From positions 59,771-91,770 of the forward strand of contig DXJG01000010.1 in NCBI GenBank assembly GCA_019056805.1: DNA of 32,000 nucleotides. Reading direction: 5' to 3'. A model generated the notes under the pieces. It was not told where the DNA came from, did not search any database, and worked only from the letters and a program-made list of their open reading frames with translations. The first letter of the stretch is position 1; each line of letters begins with the position of its first letter. This document shows positions 3,247-15,785 of the stretch, piece by piece. This stretch comes from Candidatus Baldrarchaeota archaeon. Lineage in GTDB: Archaea; Asgardarchaeota; Baldrarchaeia; Baldrarchaeales; DXJG01. Made by a program: the position numbers and the translations under genes.

Positions 3247-4101
3247 TTATGTTGTGGTTTCTATTCCTTGTATTAGGTTATCTATACATATTCCTAGTTT
3301 GGTGGTGTATCCTCCTTCAAGTATTATGAAGACAGGTAATTCTAGTGAGCCTATTCTTTTCCCTATTTCTTTGTAACATTCTAAGGTTAGGTTTAAGCCT
3401 CCTAGGTCTCCTTTAAGTGTGTCGAAACCTGCTGATACAGCTACCACTTCTATTTCACTTGTATCCACGTTGCTGAGGGCTTTGTCTAAGGTTTTTAAAT
3501 ACAGTTTGTCATCTGTTCCAATTGGAAGAGGATAATTGTAGTAATTGTCTTCGCTTCTAAATCCTGTCCCAGGGTAAATGCCCCTAGTGTGTAGGGAGAT
3601 GAAGATTACATCTTTTGAACCTTCAAATATTTCTTGGGTTCCGTTTCCATGATGCGTGTCGATATCTAGGATTAAGGTTTTTTTACCTAGTTTTTTGACC
3701 GCTATTGCAATGTTGTTGAAGTAGCAGAAGCCTAGGGTTGGAGCTCCTAGCGCTTTTCCTTTTATACCAGCGTGGTGTCCTGGTGGGCGCATTAGGGAGA
3801 ATGCTTTTTCTTTCGCCGCTAATATTGCTGCCCCAGCGGAAAGTTTAGCGTATTCGTAAATGTTTTCGTAGGCTGGTGTATCAGGATCATAGAAGTTTCC
3901 ATTTTTAATTTTTTCAATGTATTCCTTGGTATGTACTAGTAGTAGGTCTTCTTCTGTGGCTGGTTTTGGTTCAATGAACTCATATTTATCTTTTAGGTGT
4001 TCATAGGCTAGTTGAACTCTTCTGGGGTTTTCAGGATGATATGGTGAACCATACTCTAAGCATTTAGGCGAAAACACGATCTTCATTGCTTCCTCCACCA
4101 C
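3247..4101 (-). CDS. Histone deacetylase-family (class II-like) Zn-dependent deacetylase
   Basis: Motifs HPENPRR, RPPGHHA, GFCYFNN, DIDTHHGNGTQ, SAGFD and LEGGY. Confidence 0.93.
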   Translation of the reverse strand: MVEEAMKIVFSPKCLEYGSPYHPENPRRVQLAYEHLKDKYEFIEPKPATEEDLLLVHTKEYIEKIKNGNFYDPDTPAYENIYEYAKLSAGAAILAAKEKAFSLMRPPGHHAGIKGKALGAPTLGFCYFNNIAIAVKKLGKKTLILDIDTHHGNGTQEIFEGSKDVIFISLHTRGIYPGTGFRSEDNYYNYPLPIGTDDKLYLKTLDKALSNVDTSEIEVVAVSAGFDTLKGDLGGLNLTLECYKEIGKRIGSLELPVFIILEGGYTTKLGICIDNLIQGIETTT

Positions 4102-9192: not shown

Positions 9193-10098
9193 GTGTTTAG
9201 CTTGCAGAAACCAGTTATTGTTGTACATGGTGGTGCGTGGAATATACCTGACGATTTAGTTGATCCCCATATTGAAGGAGTTAGAAACGCTGTGAAGATA
9301 GGCTGGGATGTTCTTGTGAACGGTGGGTCAGCATTAGATGCTGTTGAGGCTGCAGTGAAAACCATGGAAGACGATCCAACATTTGACGCTGGCAAGGGTT
9401 CTTTTCTCAACGAGGAAGGGTTTGTTGAGCTTGATGCTATAATTATGGATGGTTCTACATTAGATGTTGGCGCTGTTGCCGCTGTAAGAAATATTAAGAA
9501 CCCGATTGTTTTGGCAAGAAAGGTTATGGAGCTTACGGAGCATGTTCTTCTTGTTGGAGAGGGTGCAAATAAGTTTGCTAAGAAAATAGGGATAAAGATG
9601 GTTGATCCAAGAGAGTTGGTTTTGGAAAGGGAGGTAGAACGTTGGAAAGCGTTTAAGAAAGGAAAACTGAATGTAAAGGATATTTTTGAACCTGCTTCGA
9701 AGGGAACTGTTGGTGCTGTTGCTGTTGATATAAATGGGAATTTTGCTGCTGCTACTTCGACGGGAGGTGTTGCTGGTAAAATGGTGGGTCGTGTAGGTGA
9801 TACGCCGTTGGTGGGTTGTGGTACGTATGTTGATAACAATTATGGTGCTGTGTCTTCAACAGGGCATGGAGAAAAAATAATGAAAATTGTTCTTGCTAAG
9901 GAAGTGATTAATTTGATTGCACAAGGTTGTAATGCTCAGGAAGCTGCAGAAAAAGCTATTGAGTTGGTTTGGAATAGGTTGAGAGGGAGAGCTGGTGTGA
10001 TTGTGCTTGATAAGAATGGAAATATTGGTGTTTCATATAATACGCCTAGAATGGCTTATGCATATATTAAGGATGGGAAAATATTTTCTGGGATTTAA
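9193..10098 (+). CDS. iaaA: Isoaspartyl peptidase/L-asparaginase (Ntn hydrolase)
   Basis: VIVVHGGAW, ALDAVEAAV..MEDDPTFDAG, nucleophile motif GTVGAVAVD, ATSTGG, GRVGDTP and STGHGE. Confidence 0.93.
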   Translation: MFSLQKPVIVVHGGAWNIPDDLVDPHIEGVRNAVKIGWDVLVNGGSALDAVEAAVKTMEDDPTFDAGKGSFLNEEGFVELDAIIMDGSTLDVGAVAAVRNIKNPIVLARKVMELTEHVLLVGEGANKFAKKIGIKMVDPRELVLEREVERWKAFKKGKLNVKDIFEPASKGTVGAVAVDINGNFAAATSTGGVAGKMVGRVGDTPLVGCGTYVDNNYGAVSSTGHGEKIMKIVLAKEVINLIAQGCNAQEAAEKAIELVWNRLRGRAGVIVLDKNGNIGVSYNTPRMAYAYIKDGKIFSGI

Positions 10099-10159
10099 GT
10101 CTGTTATTTAATTAGTTTAATATTGTTATTGAAATAGTACGGTAAAAGGGGGGTTATGT

Positions 10160-10633
10160 TTGGTTGATAGGAACCTTGTTGGTAGGTGTGGTTTTTACTG
10201 TGGGGTTTGCGAGATTTATCGTGCTTATAAGGATTCAAAGGAGCTTAGGGAGGAGATAGCATGGAAGCATGGTTGTTCTCCAGATGAGGCTAGGTGTGAG
10301 GGTTGTCAAGCGATTGATGTTTATGGTTGGTCTTATGATAAAGAATGGGGCAAGAATTGTAAAATTGTGAAGTGTTTAAATGCTAAAGGCTTGAATTTTT
10401 GTTTTGAATGTGATGAATATGATAGATGTGAAAGGTTTAATCGGTTTGCTGAGATTTGTAAGGGTCTAGGAATCGATTTAAGGAAAAATCTTGAGATGAT
10501 TAAAGAAGGAAGGATTGAGGAGTGGCTTTTAGAGCAGGATAAAAAGTGGCGTTGCCCAAAATGCGGTAAACCTATTATCGTGTCCTACGATTTTAAGAAT
10601 TGTCACTGGTGTGGATACAAGTTGCGAGATTAA
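10160..10633 (+). CDS. Cys-rich DUF3795-like metal-binding protein with C-terminal zinc ribbon
   Basis: CGFYCGVC, CEGC, C.IVKC...KGLNFCFECDEYDRC and CPKCG...CHWCG. Confidence 0.7.
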   Translation: MVDRNLVGRCGFYCGVCEIYRAYKDSKELREEIAWKHGCSPDEARCEGCQAIDVYGWSYDKEWGKNCKIVKCLNAKGLNFCFECDEYDRCERFNRFAEICKGLGIDLRKNLEMIKEGRIEEWLLEQDKKWRCPKCGKPIIVSYDFKNCHWCGYKLRD

Positions 10634-10701
10634 ATCCCAACGCATAAAAGTTTTGGGGAATAATAGTTTAGATGATGAATGTTTGTGGGGGTGTATGATT
10701 A

Positions 10702-11895
10702 ATGGATGCTGTTAAAATTGTTGAAGATGTTTATTGGGTTGGTGCTATTGATTGGAATATTAGAGATTTTCACGGATATTCTACACATAGGGGGACGACT
10801 TACAATGCTTATTTGATTTTGGGTGAGAAGAACATCCTTATTGATACGGTGAAGAAAGGGTTTTTTGATGAGATGATTAGTAGGATTCAAAATGTCATTG
10901 AACCTAGGGATATTGATTATATTTTTTCTTTACATGTTGAAATGGATCATTCTGGTTCACTTCCCGAAATTATGGAGGTTGCAGATAAAGCTAAGGTTGT
11001 TGCTACTGAGAGATGTCAGAAAGGTTTGAGTTTACATTATCATGAGTGCAAAAAGGAGTTTGTTACAGTTAAGAATGGTGATACTCTTAAGTTTGGAGAT
11101 AAAACATTTACTTTTGTTGAGATTCCTATGCTTCATTGGCCAGATAACACTATGACATACATGCACGAGAGAAAGATTTTATTTTCCAGCGATGGATTTG
11201 GTCAGCACCTTGCGACTTCTCAAAGATTTAACGATGAGGTTCCTGAAGATATTGTGATGTATGAAGCTAGGAAGTATTATGCTAATATTCTTTTGAGGTA
11301 TGCAGATATTGCTACAAGGCGGATAAATGAAATTTTGAAGATGAATCTTGATATAAGGGTCATTGCTCCTGCTCACGGTGTTATATGGCATAGAGATCCG
11401 ACGAAGATTGTAGAATATTATCTTAAGTGGAGCTCTGGCGATACTGTGAAGAAGGCTTTGGTTGTTTATGATACTATGTGGGGTAGTACCGCTAAAATGG
11501 CGTTAGCGATTGCCGACGGGATTATGAGCAGGGGTGTTGAAGTTAAAGTTTTTAATTTAAGGGCTACGGATAGATCTGATGTAATGACAGAGGTTTTAGA
11601 TGCACGAGCCATTATTGTAGGTTCTCCGACCCTAAACAACAATATGTTTCCAACGGTTGCAGATTTTCTCACCTATATGAAAGGTTTTAGACCCAAGAAT
11701 AAAATTGGCGCAGCATTTGGTTCATATGGTTGGAGTGGTGAAGCTCCAAAGCAAATATTGGAAGAGCTTAAAGCTATGAAGTTTGATGTTGTAGAGTCTC
11801 CTTTAAGGGTTCAATATGTACCTAGTAGAGAAGAGCTAGAGAGCTGCTATAAATTTGGGAAAGAGATCGGTAAGAAAATTGTAGAAGCAGGATAA
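10702..11895 (+). CDS. fprA: Flavodiiron protein (A-type flavoprotein; O2/NO reductase family)
   Basis: GTTYNAYLI, diiron motif HVEMDHSGS, HWPD, SSDGFGQH and PAHG, then a flavodoxin domain (YDTMWGST, GSPTLNN, AFGSYGWSG). Confidence 0.95.
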   Translation: MDAVKIVEDVYWVGAIDWNIRDFHGYSTHRGTTYNAYLILGEKNILIDTVKKGFFDEMISRIQNVIEPRDIDYIFSLHVEMDHSGSLPEIMEVADKAKVVATERCQKGLSLHYHECKKEFVTVKNGDTLKFGDKTFTFVEIPMLHWPDNTMTYMHERKILFSSDGFGQHLATSQRFNDEVPEDIVMYEARKYYANILLRYADIATRRINEILKMNLDIRVIAPAHGVIWHRDPTKIVEYYLKWSSGDTVKKALVVYDTMWGSTAKMALAIADGIMSRGVEVKVFNLRATDRSDVMTEVLDARAIIVGSPTLNNNMFPTVADFLTYMKGFRPKNKIGAAFGSYGWSGEAPKQILEELKAMKFDVVESPLRVQYVPSREELESCYKFGKEIGKKIVEAG

Positions 11896-11967
11896 TTTCG
11901 ATAGAAAAATACCAAACTTTATATTTTAGACCTTGGATTGTTAGGTAGATGGAAAGGAGGGGGTATT

Positions 11968-12132
11968 ATGAAAAAGTGGAGATGCACGATTTGTGGATAC
12001 ATATATGACCCTGAGACTGGCGACCCTGATAGTGGTATTTCTCCAGGAACACCTTTTGAAGAACTGCCTGATGATTGGGTTTGCCCAGAGTGCGGAGCTA
12101 CTAAGGACATGTTCGAGGAGCTAGAAGAGTAG
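11968..12132 (+). CDS. rub: Rubredoxin
   Basis: [15 protein letters not shown]...[20 protein letters not shown] at 11968 follows a ggaggggg RBS. Confidence 0.96.
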
Positions 12133-12182
12133 CGAAAAAGCGCGTTGTTAGAGATTTAGTATATAGTTGCGAAGACTTCGAC

Positions 12183-12205
12183 TTCCTTTTCTTTTATTTT
12201 TGTTT
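12183..12205 (+). terminator. Possible oligo-T archaeal terminator after fprA-rubredoxin
   Basis: T-tract ttccttttcttttatttttgttt about 50 nt after the rubredoxin stop. The whole gap is T-rich, so support is weak. Confidence 0.3.
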
Positions 12206-12368
12206 GCACTTTATAATTTAGCTTCATTGAATTACGTTGATTGTATGTTGTTTTTATTATTTATGTTAGGTTTTATTTTGTATTTGTGCTTGGAATCGTA
12301 TGGTTTTTATTTGGTTTGTGTTTCGTGTGGTTAATGTTTACGTTGTGTGTGATTTGGAGGTTTGAGGT

Positions 12369-13622
12369 ATGGCTTTAGTGCCTTATAGGACGTGCAAGTT
12401 GTTTGGGGCCATTAGGGTTGTGCTTGGTATTCGTGGATCGGTTGTTTTGGTTCATGGTCCTCGTGGCTGTGCTTATCATATTAGGTATTTGTTGGGTGTG
12501 CGTGGCCCATTTTCAGGGTTGATTTTTACTACTGAGATGAATGAGCGAGATGTTATTTTTGGTGCTGGGGATAAGTTGCGGAATGCGATTTTACAAGTTG
12601 ATAAGGAGTATTCTCCTGAGCTTATTGGTGTTTTAACATCTTGTGTAAGTAGTATTATTGGTGAAGATGTTGACTCAGTTATAAGGTCTGTTAAAGACGA
12701 TGTTAAGTCTAAGGTTATTTTTATTCCTGCCGGGGGATTTGAAGGTGATCATATTGATGGCTATAAAGAAGCGTTAAATGTGATTGTCAAAGAACTTGTT
12801 TCCGAACCTGAGAAGAAGCTGGAAGATTCGATTAATTTAGTTGGTTTATATCGTTTTGGCCCTGATGTTGAAGATCTTTTACAAGTTTTTTCAAAGCTTG
12901 GAATTAGTGTTAACGGTATATTAACGGTTGACTCTTCTTTAGATGCACTTCGAAAATTGTCCGAAGCTTCTTTAAATGTTATTATGTGTGAAGCTAGCGG
13001 TTTTGAAGCTGCTCATCTTATGAAGAAGTTTTATAACATTCCTTATGTTTATTCAACTTTACCAATCGGAATTACTTCTACAGAACGCTTTTTGTTAAAG
13101 GTTCTCGAAGGCTTAGGTAAAGAACCTAGGCTTCCAGATCCAGTTGAGAAAGAAAAGAGGTTAGCAATCGAGGAAATTAAGAAAGTTGCTGAGCATCTTA
13201 GGGGTTTAAGGGTTGCTATTATTAGTGGTTCTACTCGTGTTGCTCCCTTAACCGAATTTGTTTGGGAACTTGGAATGGAACCTGTTGTTGTTTCAATTGA
13301 TAGACTTGGAGAGGTTACTTTAGAACTGTTAGATATGGTTGTTAAAGAGCATTCTTTAAGTCCTAGGGTTTTGAAAGAACCTGATTTTCAAGAGGTTTTG
13401 GATGCTTTGAGGAAGGAGAAGGTTGATTTGATTTTGGGAGGTCTTTATGAGAGATCTCTTTCTTACGAGTTAAATGTACCTTTATATGATATTATGCATA
13501 GTGAAGAGCGAACTATGGGCTTTAAAAACGCTGTTACTCTTTCTAAAAATATTCTTTCAAATGTTAAAAATTGGAGACATGAAAGTCAGGTGGAGGGTTT
13601 TAGATGCAGATACGGCAAATAG
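12369..13622 (+). CDS. Nitrogenase component-1-type oxidoreductase, single NifD/NifE/CfbD-like subunit (group IV-like)
   Basis: RTCKLFGA (C9), HGPRGC (C34), TTEMNERDVIFG, TSCVSSIIGEDV (C92), GGFEGD, LNVIMC (C207) and VPLYDIMHS (H377). RBS ggaggtttgaggt upstream. Confidence 0.9.
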   Translation: MALVPYRTCKLFGAIRVVLGIRGSVVLVHGPRGCAYHIRYLLGVRGPFSGLIFTTEMNERDVIFGAGDKLRNAILQVDKEYSPELIGVLTSCVSSIIGEDVDSVIRSVKDDVKSKVIFIPAGGFEGDHIDGYKEALNVIVKELVSEPEKKLEDSINLVGLYRFGPDVEDLLQVFSKLGISVNGILTVDSSLDALRKLSEASLNVIMCEASGFEAAHLMKKFYNIPYVYSTLPIGITSTERFLLKVLEGLGKEPRLPDPVEKEKRLAIEEIKKVAEHLRGLRVAIISGSTRVAPLTEFVWELGMEPVVVSIDRLGEVTLELLDMVVKEHSLSPRVLKEPDFQEVLDALRKEKVDLILGGLYERSLSYELNVPLYDIMHSEERTMGFKNAVTLSKNILSNVKNWRHESQVEGFRCRYGK

Positions 13623-14422
13623 CTATTTACGGGAAAGGCGGAATTGGAAAATCCACAATAGCTGCCAATATTTCAGCCGCTTTAGCTGAGAAAGGCCTTA
13701 GAGTTATGTTGGTTGGATGCGATCCTAAAAGAGATTCCACGATGACTTTGGTTGGTGGAAAACAGTTGCCACCGTTGCTTGAACTTCTCAAAGATAAGAG
13801 GAAATTGTCGCTGGGTGAGGTTGTTTTTGAGGGGTTTAAAGGTGTTTTATGTGTTGAGGTTGGTGGCCCTGAGCCGGGTATTGGTTGTGCTGGAAGAGGT
13901 TTAATTCTCGCTTTTAGAACTCTTGAGGAGCTGGGAGCTTTTGAACAGCCATTGGATTTTATAATTTATGATGTTCCTGGAGATGTTGTTTGTGGTGGTT
14001 TTGCTGTTCCTATGCGTGAAGGTTTTGCAAGAGAGGTTTATATTGTGACCTCTGGGGAATATCTTTCTCTCTATGCAGCGAATAATATTTGTAGGGGTGT
14101 TAGGCGGATAAATGCTAGACTTGGTGGAATTATTTGTAATTCTCGAAGGGTTCCTCGCGAAAAAGAGATTGTTGAAATGTTTACACAGGCTGTTAAATCT
14201 AGGGTGGTTGGTTTTGTTCCTTGGGATCCTATTGTTCCAAAATGTGAACTTCAAGGTAAAACTGTTATTGAGGGTGCACCTGATTCGGAGCAAGCTGAAA
14301 TTTATCGAAACTTAGCTACTAATATATTGAAGAATAAGGAGCTTGTTGTTCCAAGCCCTATACAATTCACGGAACTTAGAGTTTTTATGAAAAAATTTAT
14401 GGGAGAATATGCCCGGGAGTGA
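13604..14422 (+). CDS. nifH: Nitrogenase iron-protein homolog (NifH/NflH/CfbC family)
   Basis: IAIYGKGGIGKST, GCDPKRDST, GGPEPGIGCAGRG, DVPGDVVCGGFAVPMR and YAANNI. Both 4Fe-4S cysteines are present. Overlaps the D-like gene by 19 nt. Confidence 0.93.
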   Translation: MQIRQIAIYGKGGIGKSTIAANISAALAEKGLRVMLVGCDPKRDSTMTLVGGKQLPPLLELLKDKRKLSLGEVVFEGFKGVLCVEVGGPEPGIGCAGRGLILAFRTLEELGAFEQPLDFIIYDVPGDVVCGGFAVPMREGFAREVYIVTSGEYLSLYAANNICRGVRRINARLGGIICNSRRVPREKEIVEMFTQAVKSRVVGFVPWDPIVPKCELQGKTVIEGAPDSEQAEIYRNLATNILKNKELVVPSPIQFTELRVFMKKFMGEYARE

Positions 14423-14428
14423 AATAAT

Positions 14429-15292
14429 ATGTCTTCTTTAGCTTCATATGTTCGTGTTCATCCATGTTTTGACGAAAAAGCCCATTTTACTTATGCTCGT
14501 ATCCATCTTCCAGTTGCTCCCAGATGTAATATTCGCTGTAATTATTGTGAACGAATAATTGATGGGAAATGTTTTGTGAATAGACCGGGTATAGCTTCAC
14601 AAATAGTTTCGCCGAAAGAAGCAGCTGAACTTATTAGAAAAGCTAAAAATATTTATTCATCTTTATCTGTGGTTGGTATAGCTGGTCCAGGAGAACCTTT
14701 AGCGAATCCTGAAACTTTTGAAACTTTAGAGTTAGTTCATGAAGAGTTTCCAGATCTTTTGAAATGTGTTGCTACAAATGGTTTACTATTACCTTTTTAT
14801 GTTTATAAGCTTTGGAAACTTGGTGTTAGAACATTAACGATTACTGTTAATGCTGTTAAACCCGAAGTGGGGCAATATGTATATTCTTGGATTAAAATTG
14901 ATAGAGATGTTTATTTTGGTTTTGAAGCTGCAAAAAGACTTATTGAGGCCCAGTTGAATGGAATTGAGAGGGCTGTTAAGTTTGGATTTGCTGTAAAGGT
15001 GAATACTGTTCTTATCCCTGGAATTAATGATGCTCATATCGTCCAAGTTGCTAGAGAAATGGCGGCCAGAGGAGTTTATATTCAAAATATTATTCCTTTA
15101 ATACCTCTTGGTGTTTTCAAAAATCTTCATCCACCTGAACCAGGTATGTTGGAAGCTGTTCGAAAAGAATGCTACAAATATATTAGGCAGTTTCATTTAT
15201 GCAAAATGTGTCGGGCAGATGCTCTTGGAGTCCCTGGCCAAGAAATAAGTATGTACGAGAAAAATTGTTGTTCTCGATCTTGTCATGGGTAG
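14429..15292 (+). CDS. nifB: NifB-family radical SAM protein, short form without NifX domain
   Basis: HPC, RIHLPVAPRCNIRCNYC, RPG, VVGIAGPGEPLAN, TITVN, KVNTVLIPGIND and CKMCRADALG. Starts 6 nt after the nifH-like stop. Confidence 0.93.
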   Translation: MSSLASYVRVHPCFDEKAHFTYARIHLPVAPRCNIRCNYCERIIDGKCFVNRPGIASQIVSPKEAAELIRKAKNIYSSLSVVGIAGPGEPLANPETFETLELVHEEFPDLLKCVATNGLLLPFYVYKLWKLGVRTLTITVNAVKPEVGQYVYSWIKIDRDVYFGFEAAKRLIEAQLNGIERAVKFGFAVKVNTVLIPGINDAHIVQVAREMAARGVYIQNIIPLIPLGVFKNLHPPEPGMLEAVRKECYKYIRQFHLCKMCRADALGVPGQEISMYEKNCCSRSCHG

Positions 15293-15308: not shown

Positions 15309-15785
15309 TTATTGTTGTAGGTGTTCTATGCGGTTTGCTGTTTTGTTTTCGATGTATAAGGCTGATATGAAGGGTTCTTTGAATGTGGTGGTTATTTTCT
15401 TTTTGGTTTTTATGAAAAATATTTTGTATTCGATTTCTATGTTATGAGCGTTAAATGTTCCAATTACTGCAACTTCATCGTTTTTCCGTAAGTCTATGTC
15501 TGATGGATATTTTATCAGTATGGTGTCTCCGTGTTCATCTTCTAGATAAAAGTATGTAGCGCTCTTGGCTATTGGAATTGTTTGCGGTAGGTCGAAAATC
15601 CACGTGTCAGTTACCACTTCCTCTATAAGATCTGTATTAACTACCTGAGTTACCTTTCCCTCTACTAGAACTGTTTTCTGATGATATTCTTTTTGCTTCA
15701 AAAGTAAATCTCTCACATTTACTTTAACGTATCTATAGGATTCCCTTAGTTTTTGTGTAAACCTATTTAAAAAGTTTTCAGCCAT
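15309..15785 (-). CDS. Hypothetical protein, probable OB-fold
   Basis: YHQKTVLVEGKV...FYLEDEHGDTILIKY...NDEVAVIGTF resembles an OB-fold beta-barrel pattern. Convergent with nifB. Confidence 0.55.
   Translation of the reverse strand: MAENFLNRFTQKLRESYRYVKVNVRDLLLKQKEYHQKTVLVEGKVTQVVNTDLIEEVVTDTWIFDLPQTIPIAKSATYFYLEDEHGDTILIKYPSDIDLRKNDEVAVIGTFNAHNIEIEYKIFFIKTKKKITTTFKEPFISALYIENKTANRIEHLQQ

Follow-up and report, generated by a model that had tools for sequence, protein, structure and literature searches.

A stretch of 32,000 nucleotides from Candidatus Baldrarchaeota archaeon (assembly GCA_019056805.1, contig DXJG01000010.1, positions 59,771-91,770 of the forward strand; hereafter the window) carries three adjacent genes, termed D, H and B here, for a lone NifD/NifE-like subunit, a NifH-family reductase and a NifB (Table 1). 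We consider it slightly better than an even bet that D-H-B is a self-contained two-component enzyme of the nitrogenase family which possesses a single type of catalytic subunit, operates as a homomer and employs an 8Fe cluster made by NifB. An initial annotation of the window had proposed a homo-oligomeric, NifB-coupled reductase in a non-methanogenic archaeon. Gene content, NifD-type cluster ligands and a homodimer model speak for this proposal; its oligomeric state and its cluster stay predictions.

The host genome is a metagenome-assembled genome (MAG) of 1.92 Mb in 18 contigs which is rated 91% complete, and all negative results for this genome are to be read with this completeness. The window is located on its contig C18. 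The whole genome contained one match to PF00148, one true NifH and one NifB. Every open reading frame (ORF) was compared with NifD, NifK, NifE, NifN, NflD and NflK queries from annotated plasmids and with CfbD, CfbB and CfbE queries from a Methanoculleus locus. The NifD, NifK, NifE, NifN, NflD, NflK and CfbD references each matched D alone, and CfbB and CfbE matched nothing among all ORFs of the host. McrA, McrC, Mmp7 and Mmp17 were not found in the genome, nor were HemB and CbiX. The initial annotation had reported that a K/N partner, nifEN, cfb genes and mcr are absent; this holds for the window and extends to the genome. Its reservation that partner genes may be encoded elsewhere was not borne out by the whole-genome search with K and N references, which returned D only. 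With NifDK, NifEN, McrA, McrC, Mmp7 and Mmp17 not found, the host has no other known client for NifB, which favours D-H-B as a self-contained module. HemB, CbiX, CfbB and CfbE were not found in either of two Baldrarchaeia genomes; on this basis neither has a de novo tetrapyrrole route.

The tight coupling of the trio described in the initial annotation agrees with the ORF coordinates, with an overlap of 19 nt between D and H and a gap of 6 nt between H and B. The following ORF (15309-15785) is convergent; therefore, the unit terminates with B. D, H and B point the same way in the window and likewise at loci L007 and L011 of two further Baldrarchaeia-type assemblies, and with this recurrence the trio goes beyond a chance arrangement. 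The ratios of non-synonymous to synonymous substitution rates (dN/dS), calculated between the window and L007, were 0.08 in D, 0.09 in H and 0.16 in B. These values indicate purifying selection and, therefore, all three genes are maintained. At L011 (AUK032 assembly, 3660-3680) an extra A in a homopolymer removes a low-confidence tail of ~14 residues from the C-terminus of D and so places D and H in one frame, with a single TGA codon between them. The extra A may be an assembly error.

D matched PF00148 with 321 bits. Among the NCBIfam models the best match was nifE (TIGR01283) with 202.5 bits against a cut-off of 505.1; nifD was matched with 122.8 (cut-off 653.55), vnfD with 108.8 (823.1) and anfD with 98.9 (873.8). 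With the CfbD model TIGR03282 D scored 77.5 against a cut-off of 268.4, and this for residues 23-141 only; a genuine CfbD from locus L068 scored 509. The best match in the PDB was the fused NifEN 9i0g with 184 bits, and MarD (9fmg_A) was matched with 98.8 bits. A profile search which covered 1.84 billion representatives delineated a compact D family: about six clusters at 50% identity scored 420-584 bits, three to four 333-345 bits, and the rest at most 298 bits.

The relationship between the D family and other component-1 proteins was examined in a 168-row FastTree and a 94-row IQ-TREE (LG+C20, quick search), the backbones of which are largely unresolved. The D family was monophyletic in both (support 99 and 100, respectively) and a very long branch separated it from CfbD. 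The initial annotation had considered that D might nest within CfbD; the TIGR03282 score and the trees rule out this placement. The D family grouped (SH-aLRT 96) with an assemblage which holds NifD and NifE, apart from NifK and NifN. It was also apart from the bacterial Treponema NflD/NflK reference, in trees which did not include verified MarD, IsrD, NfaD or Group VI sequences. This position is in keeping with a D-type subunit whose partner was lost. It does not support the earlier suggestion that the module resembles the ancestor before duplication of the subunits, and deep rooting of such trees is unreliable.

Next to its family membership, the cluster ligands characterise D. Residues Cys9, Cys34, Cys92, Cys207 and His377 (Table 1) are invariant in a 16-sequence alignment which spans the D family, and equivalents of NifD Cys62, Cys88, Cys154, Cys275 and His442 are kept in all 18 aligned members. 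The equivalences were derived from HMMER comparisons with NifEN and a NifD-like PDB chain and from a MAFFT alignment with named NifD, NifE, NifK, NifN and CfbD. D has five cysteines in total; four are at ligand positions and the fifth is in a disordered C-terminal tail. The equivalents of Arg96, Arg359 and Glu427 were present in 18 of 18 members, Gly356 and Ser278 (Ser or Thr) in 17 each. At position 359 the D family has Arg as has NifD, whereas two reference NifE sequences have Lys. The position of His195 is Tyr in 17 of the 18, as in Clostridium NifE, and that of the homocitrate-anchoring Lys426 is variable. Because the His195 and Lys426 equivalents are missing, an all-iron L-type cluster is likelier than FeMo-co, and efficient N2 fixation is unlikely. 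As far as residues can tell, the pattern fits a pocket for an L-type all-iron cluster, not for the homocitrate-bearing FeMo-co or for a tetrapyrrole; the substrate is more likely to be a small molecule than a tetrapyrrole. An AlphaFold2 model of the D monomer had a mean confidence (predicted local distance difference test, pLDDT) of 89.3. Foldseek superimposed it on NifK, NifD, NifEN, MarD and the B subunit of DPOR with template-modelling (TM) scores of 0.78-0.85.

Does D dimerize? Two copies of D were modelled with ESMFold2, together with three controls. The homodimer scored 0.68 and the best control 0.06; the score mark applied here was attained by 20 of 30 proteins solved as same-chain pairs and by one of 23 solved as single chains. 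The runs agreed in at least 77% of contacts and the pLDDT of the partner was at least 87. The predicted symmetric interface comprises residues 1-12, 27-44, 91-97 and 123-127, segments which bear Cys9, Cys34 and Cys92. Thus positioned, six cysteines would be gathered where NifDK carries the P-cluster. The model is a statement of likeness, not of binding.

H matched PF00142 with 331 bits. It scored 398.8 with the CfbC model NF033200 (cut-off 402) and 368.8 with nifH (cut-off 394). The P-loop (residues 10-17), switch I (39-46) and the cluster cysteines Cys95 and Cys130 are intact. Outside its own clade the nearest relatives are methanogen CfbC proteins with 55-59% identity, and the H proteins of the Baldrarchaeia modules and of the Archaeoglobales-like ones formed, in a quick tree, one clade (support 96) nested among CfbC. 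At NCBI the Baldrarchaeia orthologue of H (protein P0267) is labelled CfbC, in genomes without CfbD, CfbB, CfbE and MCR. For metabolic reconstructions this label is an annotation trap.

The best NCBIfam match of B was nifB (TIGR01290; 278.8 bits, model positions 5-279 of 441). B aligned over its full length to solved NifB structures, with 283 bits for 6y1x and 275 bits for 7bi7, 7jma and 7jmb. It has a CxxxCxxC motif at residues 33-40 and conserved Cys13, His26, Cys48, Cys113, Cys258 and Cys261; both this radical-SAM motif and the additional Cys/His ligands of the K-clusters align with 6y1x and 7bi7. The closest sequences (53-56% identity) are NifB proteins from archaea with a methane or alkane metabolism, and B groups with archaeal NifB. 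By these similarities B appears to be a genuine NifB, predicted to make the [8Fe-9S-C] L-cluster.

The D family occurs in several lineages. The closest homologues of D (85-86% identity) are in MAGs named Candidatus Baldrarchaeia, and one related MAG is labelled Odinarchaeota; by these relatives the host is an Asgard archaeon. Identities to D are 86% for members in Baldrarchaeia-type MAGs, about 51% in Archaeoglobales-like MAGs, 39-46% in Methanobacterium and Methanothermobacter, 35-45% in Methanomicrobiales, 39% in a Hydrothermarchaeota MAG and 40% in a MAG labelled Bathyarchaeia. The module is not peculiar to Asgard archaea: the D family is also found as a lone gene in Methanobacteriales and Methanomicrobiales. 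Two of 41 sampled Asgard genomes, both of the same genus, carry the D family, and in the tree the Asgard clade adjoins the Archaeoglobales-like clade amid euryarchaeal ones. Placement and occurrence fit horizontal acquisition. This agrees with the view that Asgard members of the Nif family are transfers from Euryarchaeota (PMC12176620). A different nitrogenase-like PF00148 homologue, 25-26% identical to D, is present in two related Asgard genomes of the same genus and the same order, G017 (L096, 730-1842) and G020 (L097, contig C57, 8372-9487). A contig binned as Candidatus Acidiferrales bacterium (L083) holds a D-family gene with 39% identity to D; this is in the range of the Methanomicrobiales members and the contig may be mis-binned.

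Genomes without MCR were searched for D, H and NifB, i.e. two Baldrarchaeia, two Archaeoglobales-like and one Hydrothermarchaeota genome. Each of the five had D, H and NifB in exactly one copy, and McrA and McrC were found in none of them. In the Hydrothermarchaeota MAG the three genes are on three different contigs. A sixth MCR-less carrier has a single PF00148 gene as well; thus D is the sole component-1 homologue in six out of six. Mmp7 and Mmp17 were not found in these six, and a Methanothermobacter control had both. In methanogens, in contrast, D stands alone within +/-6 kb at every locus, away from H and nifB. Methanogens are reported to be universal carriers of NifB and CfbC (bioRxiv 10.1101/2023.10.20.563283). 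In three Methanobacteriaceae genomes the PF00148 genes are the D-family gene and CfbD only. That methanogens have D alone whereas MCR-less genomes have D, H and NifB is in our view the strongest argument for a joint action of the three proteins. Six Methanomicrobiales-type genomes (G007, G008, G010, G012-G014) have four PF00148 matches each, namely CfbD, the lone D and two more. The latter two genes lie side by side in G007, G008 and G012; in G010, G013 and G014 a distance of 0.3-3.3 kb separates them. This pair looks like a separate heteromeric nitrogenase-like system.

A survey of synteny across archaea (84 D-family loci, +/-6 kb), as called for by the initial annotation, corroborated the module in Baldrarchaeia-type assemblies. 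In Archaeoglobales-like MAGs the nifB that comes after D-H is convergent and scored 262 and 248 with TIGR01290; in Baldrarchaeia nifB adjoins D-H on the same strand. The D and H genes of both lineages are sisters but their nifB genes are not, in a small quick tree. Therefore, nifB may have joined D-H more than once, although this is no more than suggestive. At locus L009 (8726-9502) a PP-loop ATPase with matches to NAD_synthase, QueC and DUF7411 adjoins nifB on the same strand.

From these data a five-step mechanism can be envisaged. B would make the carbide-centred [8Fe-9S-C] L-cluster by radical-SAM chemistry. D would take up the cluster into a pocket of the NifD/NifE type, with Cys207 and His377 as ligands and a lining of the equivalents of Arg96, Arg359, Ser278 and Glu427. 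Two D chains would then pair head-to-head so that Cys9, Cys34 and Cys92 meet at the symmetric interface, where they could hold a bridging Fe-S cluster, either [4Fe-4S] or a P-like 8Fe cluster. H, as a CfbC-type Fe-protein dimer, would dock above the bridging cluster and deliver low-potential electrons paid for by ATP. Finally, the bridging cluster would hand the electrons on to the buried 8Fe cluster, where the substrate would be reduced.

How does this compare with known systems? The archaeal CfbCD shares with D-H a single catalytic subunit type and a homodimer, predicted for D, with a bridging Fe-S cluster, and its reductase CfbC is one which H resembles. Unlike in CfbCD, nifB is inside the D-H operon, and cfbB, cfbE, CbiX (CfbA family) and mcr are also missing from the host. 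To our knowledge CfbCD does not need NifB. In the MAFFT alignment CfbD retains only two cysteines, the equivalents of Cys88 and Cys154, to which D adds Cys62, Cys275 and His442. The two-cysteine content of CfbD is expected from the literature (PMC13474568); single-subunit NflD proteins with only two cysteines, which correspond to CfbD, were described earlier, and the other nitrogenase-like clades were stated to have no His442 (Dos Santos et al., 2012; PMC3464626). NifEN, the FeMo-co maturase which operates with NifH and NifB (PDB 9i0g, 3pdi, 9onk), is the best sequence match of D. It holds the NifB-made L-cluster on a cysteine which aligns with Cys207 of D, has an Fe-protein partner and has no His195 equivalent. 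However, NifEN is an E2N2 heterotetramer, whereas the host of D has neither NifN nor a NifDK client, and with His at 442, as with Arg at 359, the D family is like NifD and unlike NifEN. The methylthio-alkane reductase MarBHDK (Group IV-C NFL; PDB 9fmg, 9d9u) is, as D-H-B probably is, a nitrogenase relative which does not fix N2, and like D-H-B it has its own NifB homologue. It possesses P-type and L-type clusters (PMC12552129, PMC13474568). Mar is a bacterial D2K2 heterotetramer in a context of sulfur metabolism; D has no K partner and matches MarD more weakly than NifEN. Mo-nitrogenase NifDK shares with D the fold (TM about 0.8), five cluster-ligand positions, the equivalents of Arg96, Arg359, Ser278 and Gly356, and the dependence on NifB and an Fe-protein predicted for D. 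It differs by its beta subunit, by His195 and Lys426, and by the associated NifEN; the low nifD score of D is a further difference. Outside the nitrogenase family the only other known user of a NifB-type [8Fe-9S-C] cluster is the MCR activation complex of McrC, Mmp7, Mmp17 and A2 (PMC12176620). It demonstrates that NifB serves non-diazotrophic archaea, of which the host here is probably one. Its proteins are unrelated to D, and McrA, McrC, Mmp7 and Mmp17 were not found in the host or in the other MCR-less carriers.

Several points weigh against the proposed homomeric enzyme. Cluster identity, oligomeric state and catalysis are all predictions. The equation of His377 with His442 is based on alignment, with the register to the preceding Pro off by one residue. 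The favourable score of the homodimer may reflect what the model remembers of the solved heterodimer interfaces of NifDK, NifEN and ChlNB. H is CfbC-like. B stays below the TIGR01290 cut-off of 343.65 because that model includes a NifX domain which archaeal NifB proteins do not have. The carriers are MAGs; the host is incomplete and the others may be, so that in any single genome a partner or client could be missing. Lastly, there are tetrapyrrole genes near D in some lineages: in Methanomicrobiaceae the order is cfbE-cfbD-cfbB-ilvE-D, i.e. D is beside the F430 biosynthesis cluster, and in one Archaeoglobales MAG a CobD/CbiB gene is directly upstream of D (L008, 5040-5933) and, within the same contig, CbiX follows the module at a distance of ~4.5 kb (G002, C41, 10774-11097). 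The cfbE-cfbD-cfbB-ilvE-D order was seen in Methanoculleus nereidis (L068, 1267-7173) and at L034, L041, L057, L060, L062 and L067.

Four rival explanations were considered and are given in the order of the weight assigned to them. D might be a NifE-like scaffold, store or carrier to which the NifB product is delivered, perhaps for maturation with H, and which passes it on to an acceptor that has escaped recognition. The best matches of D to NifE and NifEN, the Tyr at the position of His195 and the lack of conservation at Lys426 are in line with this, as is one protein with a cluster-carrier domain of the NifX/NafY type on another contig of the host genome. However, the NifE score is well under the cut-off, the His at 442 and the Arg at 359 are those of NifD, none of the known acceptors (NifDK, McrC, Mmp7, Mmp17) was found in the six MCR-less genomes, and Methanobacteriaceae genomes without NifDK still retain the D gene. 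We rate a scaffold as improbable. D as a nitrogenase maturase was ruled out for genomes without NifDK. Similarly improbable is that D and H form a CfbCD-like [4Fe-4S] enzyme which acts on a tetrapyrrole, with NifB encoded close by for reasons unconnected with this enzyme; a corrinoid or an F430-type ring could be what it reduces, or it might activate the metal of such a ring by reduction. Here, the nesting of H in the CfbC radiation, just short of the CfbC cut-off, the single-subunit nature of D, which is shared with CfbD, and the tetrapyrrole neighbours listed above would find an explanation. Yet these neighbours are lineage-specific, and the genes searched for in both Baldrarchaeia genomes indicate no tetrapyrrole synthesis there. 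D has the Cys275/His442 pair and the pocket arginines, which CfbD has not; the pair is also absent from DPOR, COR and Group VI (North and Shafaat, PMC13474568). Further, a tetrapyrrole enzyme leaves NifB without a client in five MCR-less genomes, despite purifying selection and D-H linkage in two lineages.

A true minimal nitrogenase, in which D, H and B physiologically fix N2 on an L-type cluster, is very unlikely in our estimate. D does have the full set of NifD ligands in addition to Arg96 and Arg359, and NifEN loaded with L-cluster as well as NifB were reported to reduce N2 slowly (PMC13245594, PMC13474568). Against this stand the replacement of His195 by Tyr, the variable Lys426 position and the lack of nifI/PII among the window genes scanned, where no search for NifV was made. 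Moreover, we know of no report of diazotrophy which relies on a D gene. Finally, an ordinary heteromeric D/K system may have been overlooked because the K-type partner fell into a gap of an incomplete genome; all other examined carriers are MAGs, as is the host. The D and K genes of known systems of this type are neighbours. No second PF00148 homologue was found within +/-6 kb at the 84 loci, save CfbD in some Methanomicrobiaceae, and sensitive searches with K and N references did not find a partner. As six MCR-less genomes, independent of one another and drawn from three or more lineages, each have exactly one PF00148 gene, an overlooked K is the least likely of the four and hardly to be expected.

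Table 1. Features of the D-H-B locus; positions are those of the window.
Feature	Position	Strand	Description
T-rich block, core TTTTTATT	12294..12336	+	kept upstream of D in window, L007 and L011 (aligned upstream regions)
GGAGG ribosome-binding site	12356..12360	+	8 nt 5' of D start codon; also in L007 and L011
D gene	12369..13622	+	417 aa, PF00148; lone NifD/NifE-like component-1 subunit of an unnamed archaeal clade
Cys9 of D	12393..12395	+	aligns with NifD Cys62, P-cluster ligand; invariant, same column; predicted homodimer interface
Cys34 of D	12468..12470	+	aligns with NifD Cys88, P-cluster ligand; invariant; predicted homodimer interface
Cys92 of D	12642..12644	+	aligns with NifD Cys154, P-cluster ligand; invariant; predicted homodimer interface
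Cys207 of D	12987..12989	+	aligns with NifD Cys275 and the NifE L-cluster cysteine (HMMER, MAFFT); invariant
His377 of D	13497..13499	+	aligns with NifD His442; invariant D-x-M-H motif, NifD M-H column in MAFFT
H gene	13604..14422	+	272 aa, PF00142; CfbC-like Fe protein, NifH family ATPase/reductase
B gene	14429..15292	+	287 aa, radical SAM; stand-alone NifB without NifX domain

The T-rich block upstream of D is a candidate archaeal promoter element. A riboswitch or other RNA element was sought in the upstream region (11850-12450); no Rfam family matched at E <= 1. A search of sequencing runs for expression of the locus listed DNA datasets only, i.e. subsurface, marine and vent metagenomes, and no RNA dataset. 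Further upstream, an isoaspartyl-peptidase/asparaginase gene followed by a DUF3795 gene is present in the window (9193-11895) and at L007 (4448-5887). Between the DUF3795 gene and D there is a gene for a flavodiiron protein in the window, but one for an AF_2141-family protein at L007. The neighbourhoods of the 84 D-family loci were also inspected for a clue to the substrate, and no neighbour was common to all lineages. The most widespread is a DUF63 (PF01889) membrane protein at 16 loci in Archaeoglobales-like genomes and Methanobacteriaceae. It is the only cross-lineage neighbour, within a few kb of D (L009, 10076-10858; L010, 3530-4321; 14 further loci). Specific to Methanobacteriaceae are PHP, DUF1786 and LeuA, and in one group of Methanomicrobiales D has AIR-synthase-like, ARMT1-like and Rce1-like neighbours.

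In the current literature no member of the nitrogenase family other than CfbD is treated as homomeric (North and Shafaat, 2026, PMC13474568; the 2025 MCR-activation paper, PMC12176620). Likewise, heteromeric Nif/NFL proteins and the MCR activation complex are regarded as the only hosts of NifB-made clusters (PMC12176620, PMC13474568), and bacterial nflBHDK systems make up Groups IV-A, C, D, E and F (PMC13753814). No description of the D clade, or of a lone NifB-linked subunit with the full ligand set, was found by full-text searches of the literature outside subscription journals. We give an even chance to the joint claim that D-H-B represents a third kind of NifB client, namely a three-gene, homodimeric nitrogenase-family enzyme with a carbide-centred 8Fe cluster, that such a client is present in MCR-less Baldrarchaeia, Archaeoglobales-like MAGs and Hydrothermarchaeota, and that the lone D of many Methanobacteriales and Methanomicrobiales would borrow CfbC and the housekeeping NifB. 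If this is true, CfbD is not the sole homomeric member of the Nif family, which contradicts current reviews, and catalysis on an L-cluster exists in a far simpler scaffold than any known, which would be the simplest known host of an L-type cluster. D-H-B would provide a reason for the persistence of NifB in archaea which neither fix nitrogen nor make methane, and also a possible task for one of the “additional nitrogenase-like proteins of unknown function” noted in methanogens. Three small, co-expressible genes would allow a test of what an L-cluster is capable of in a minimal scaffold, a question which bears on the evolution of nitrogenase and on the transplanting of nitrogenase chemistry.

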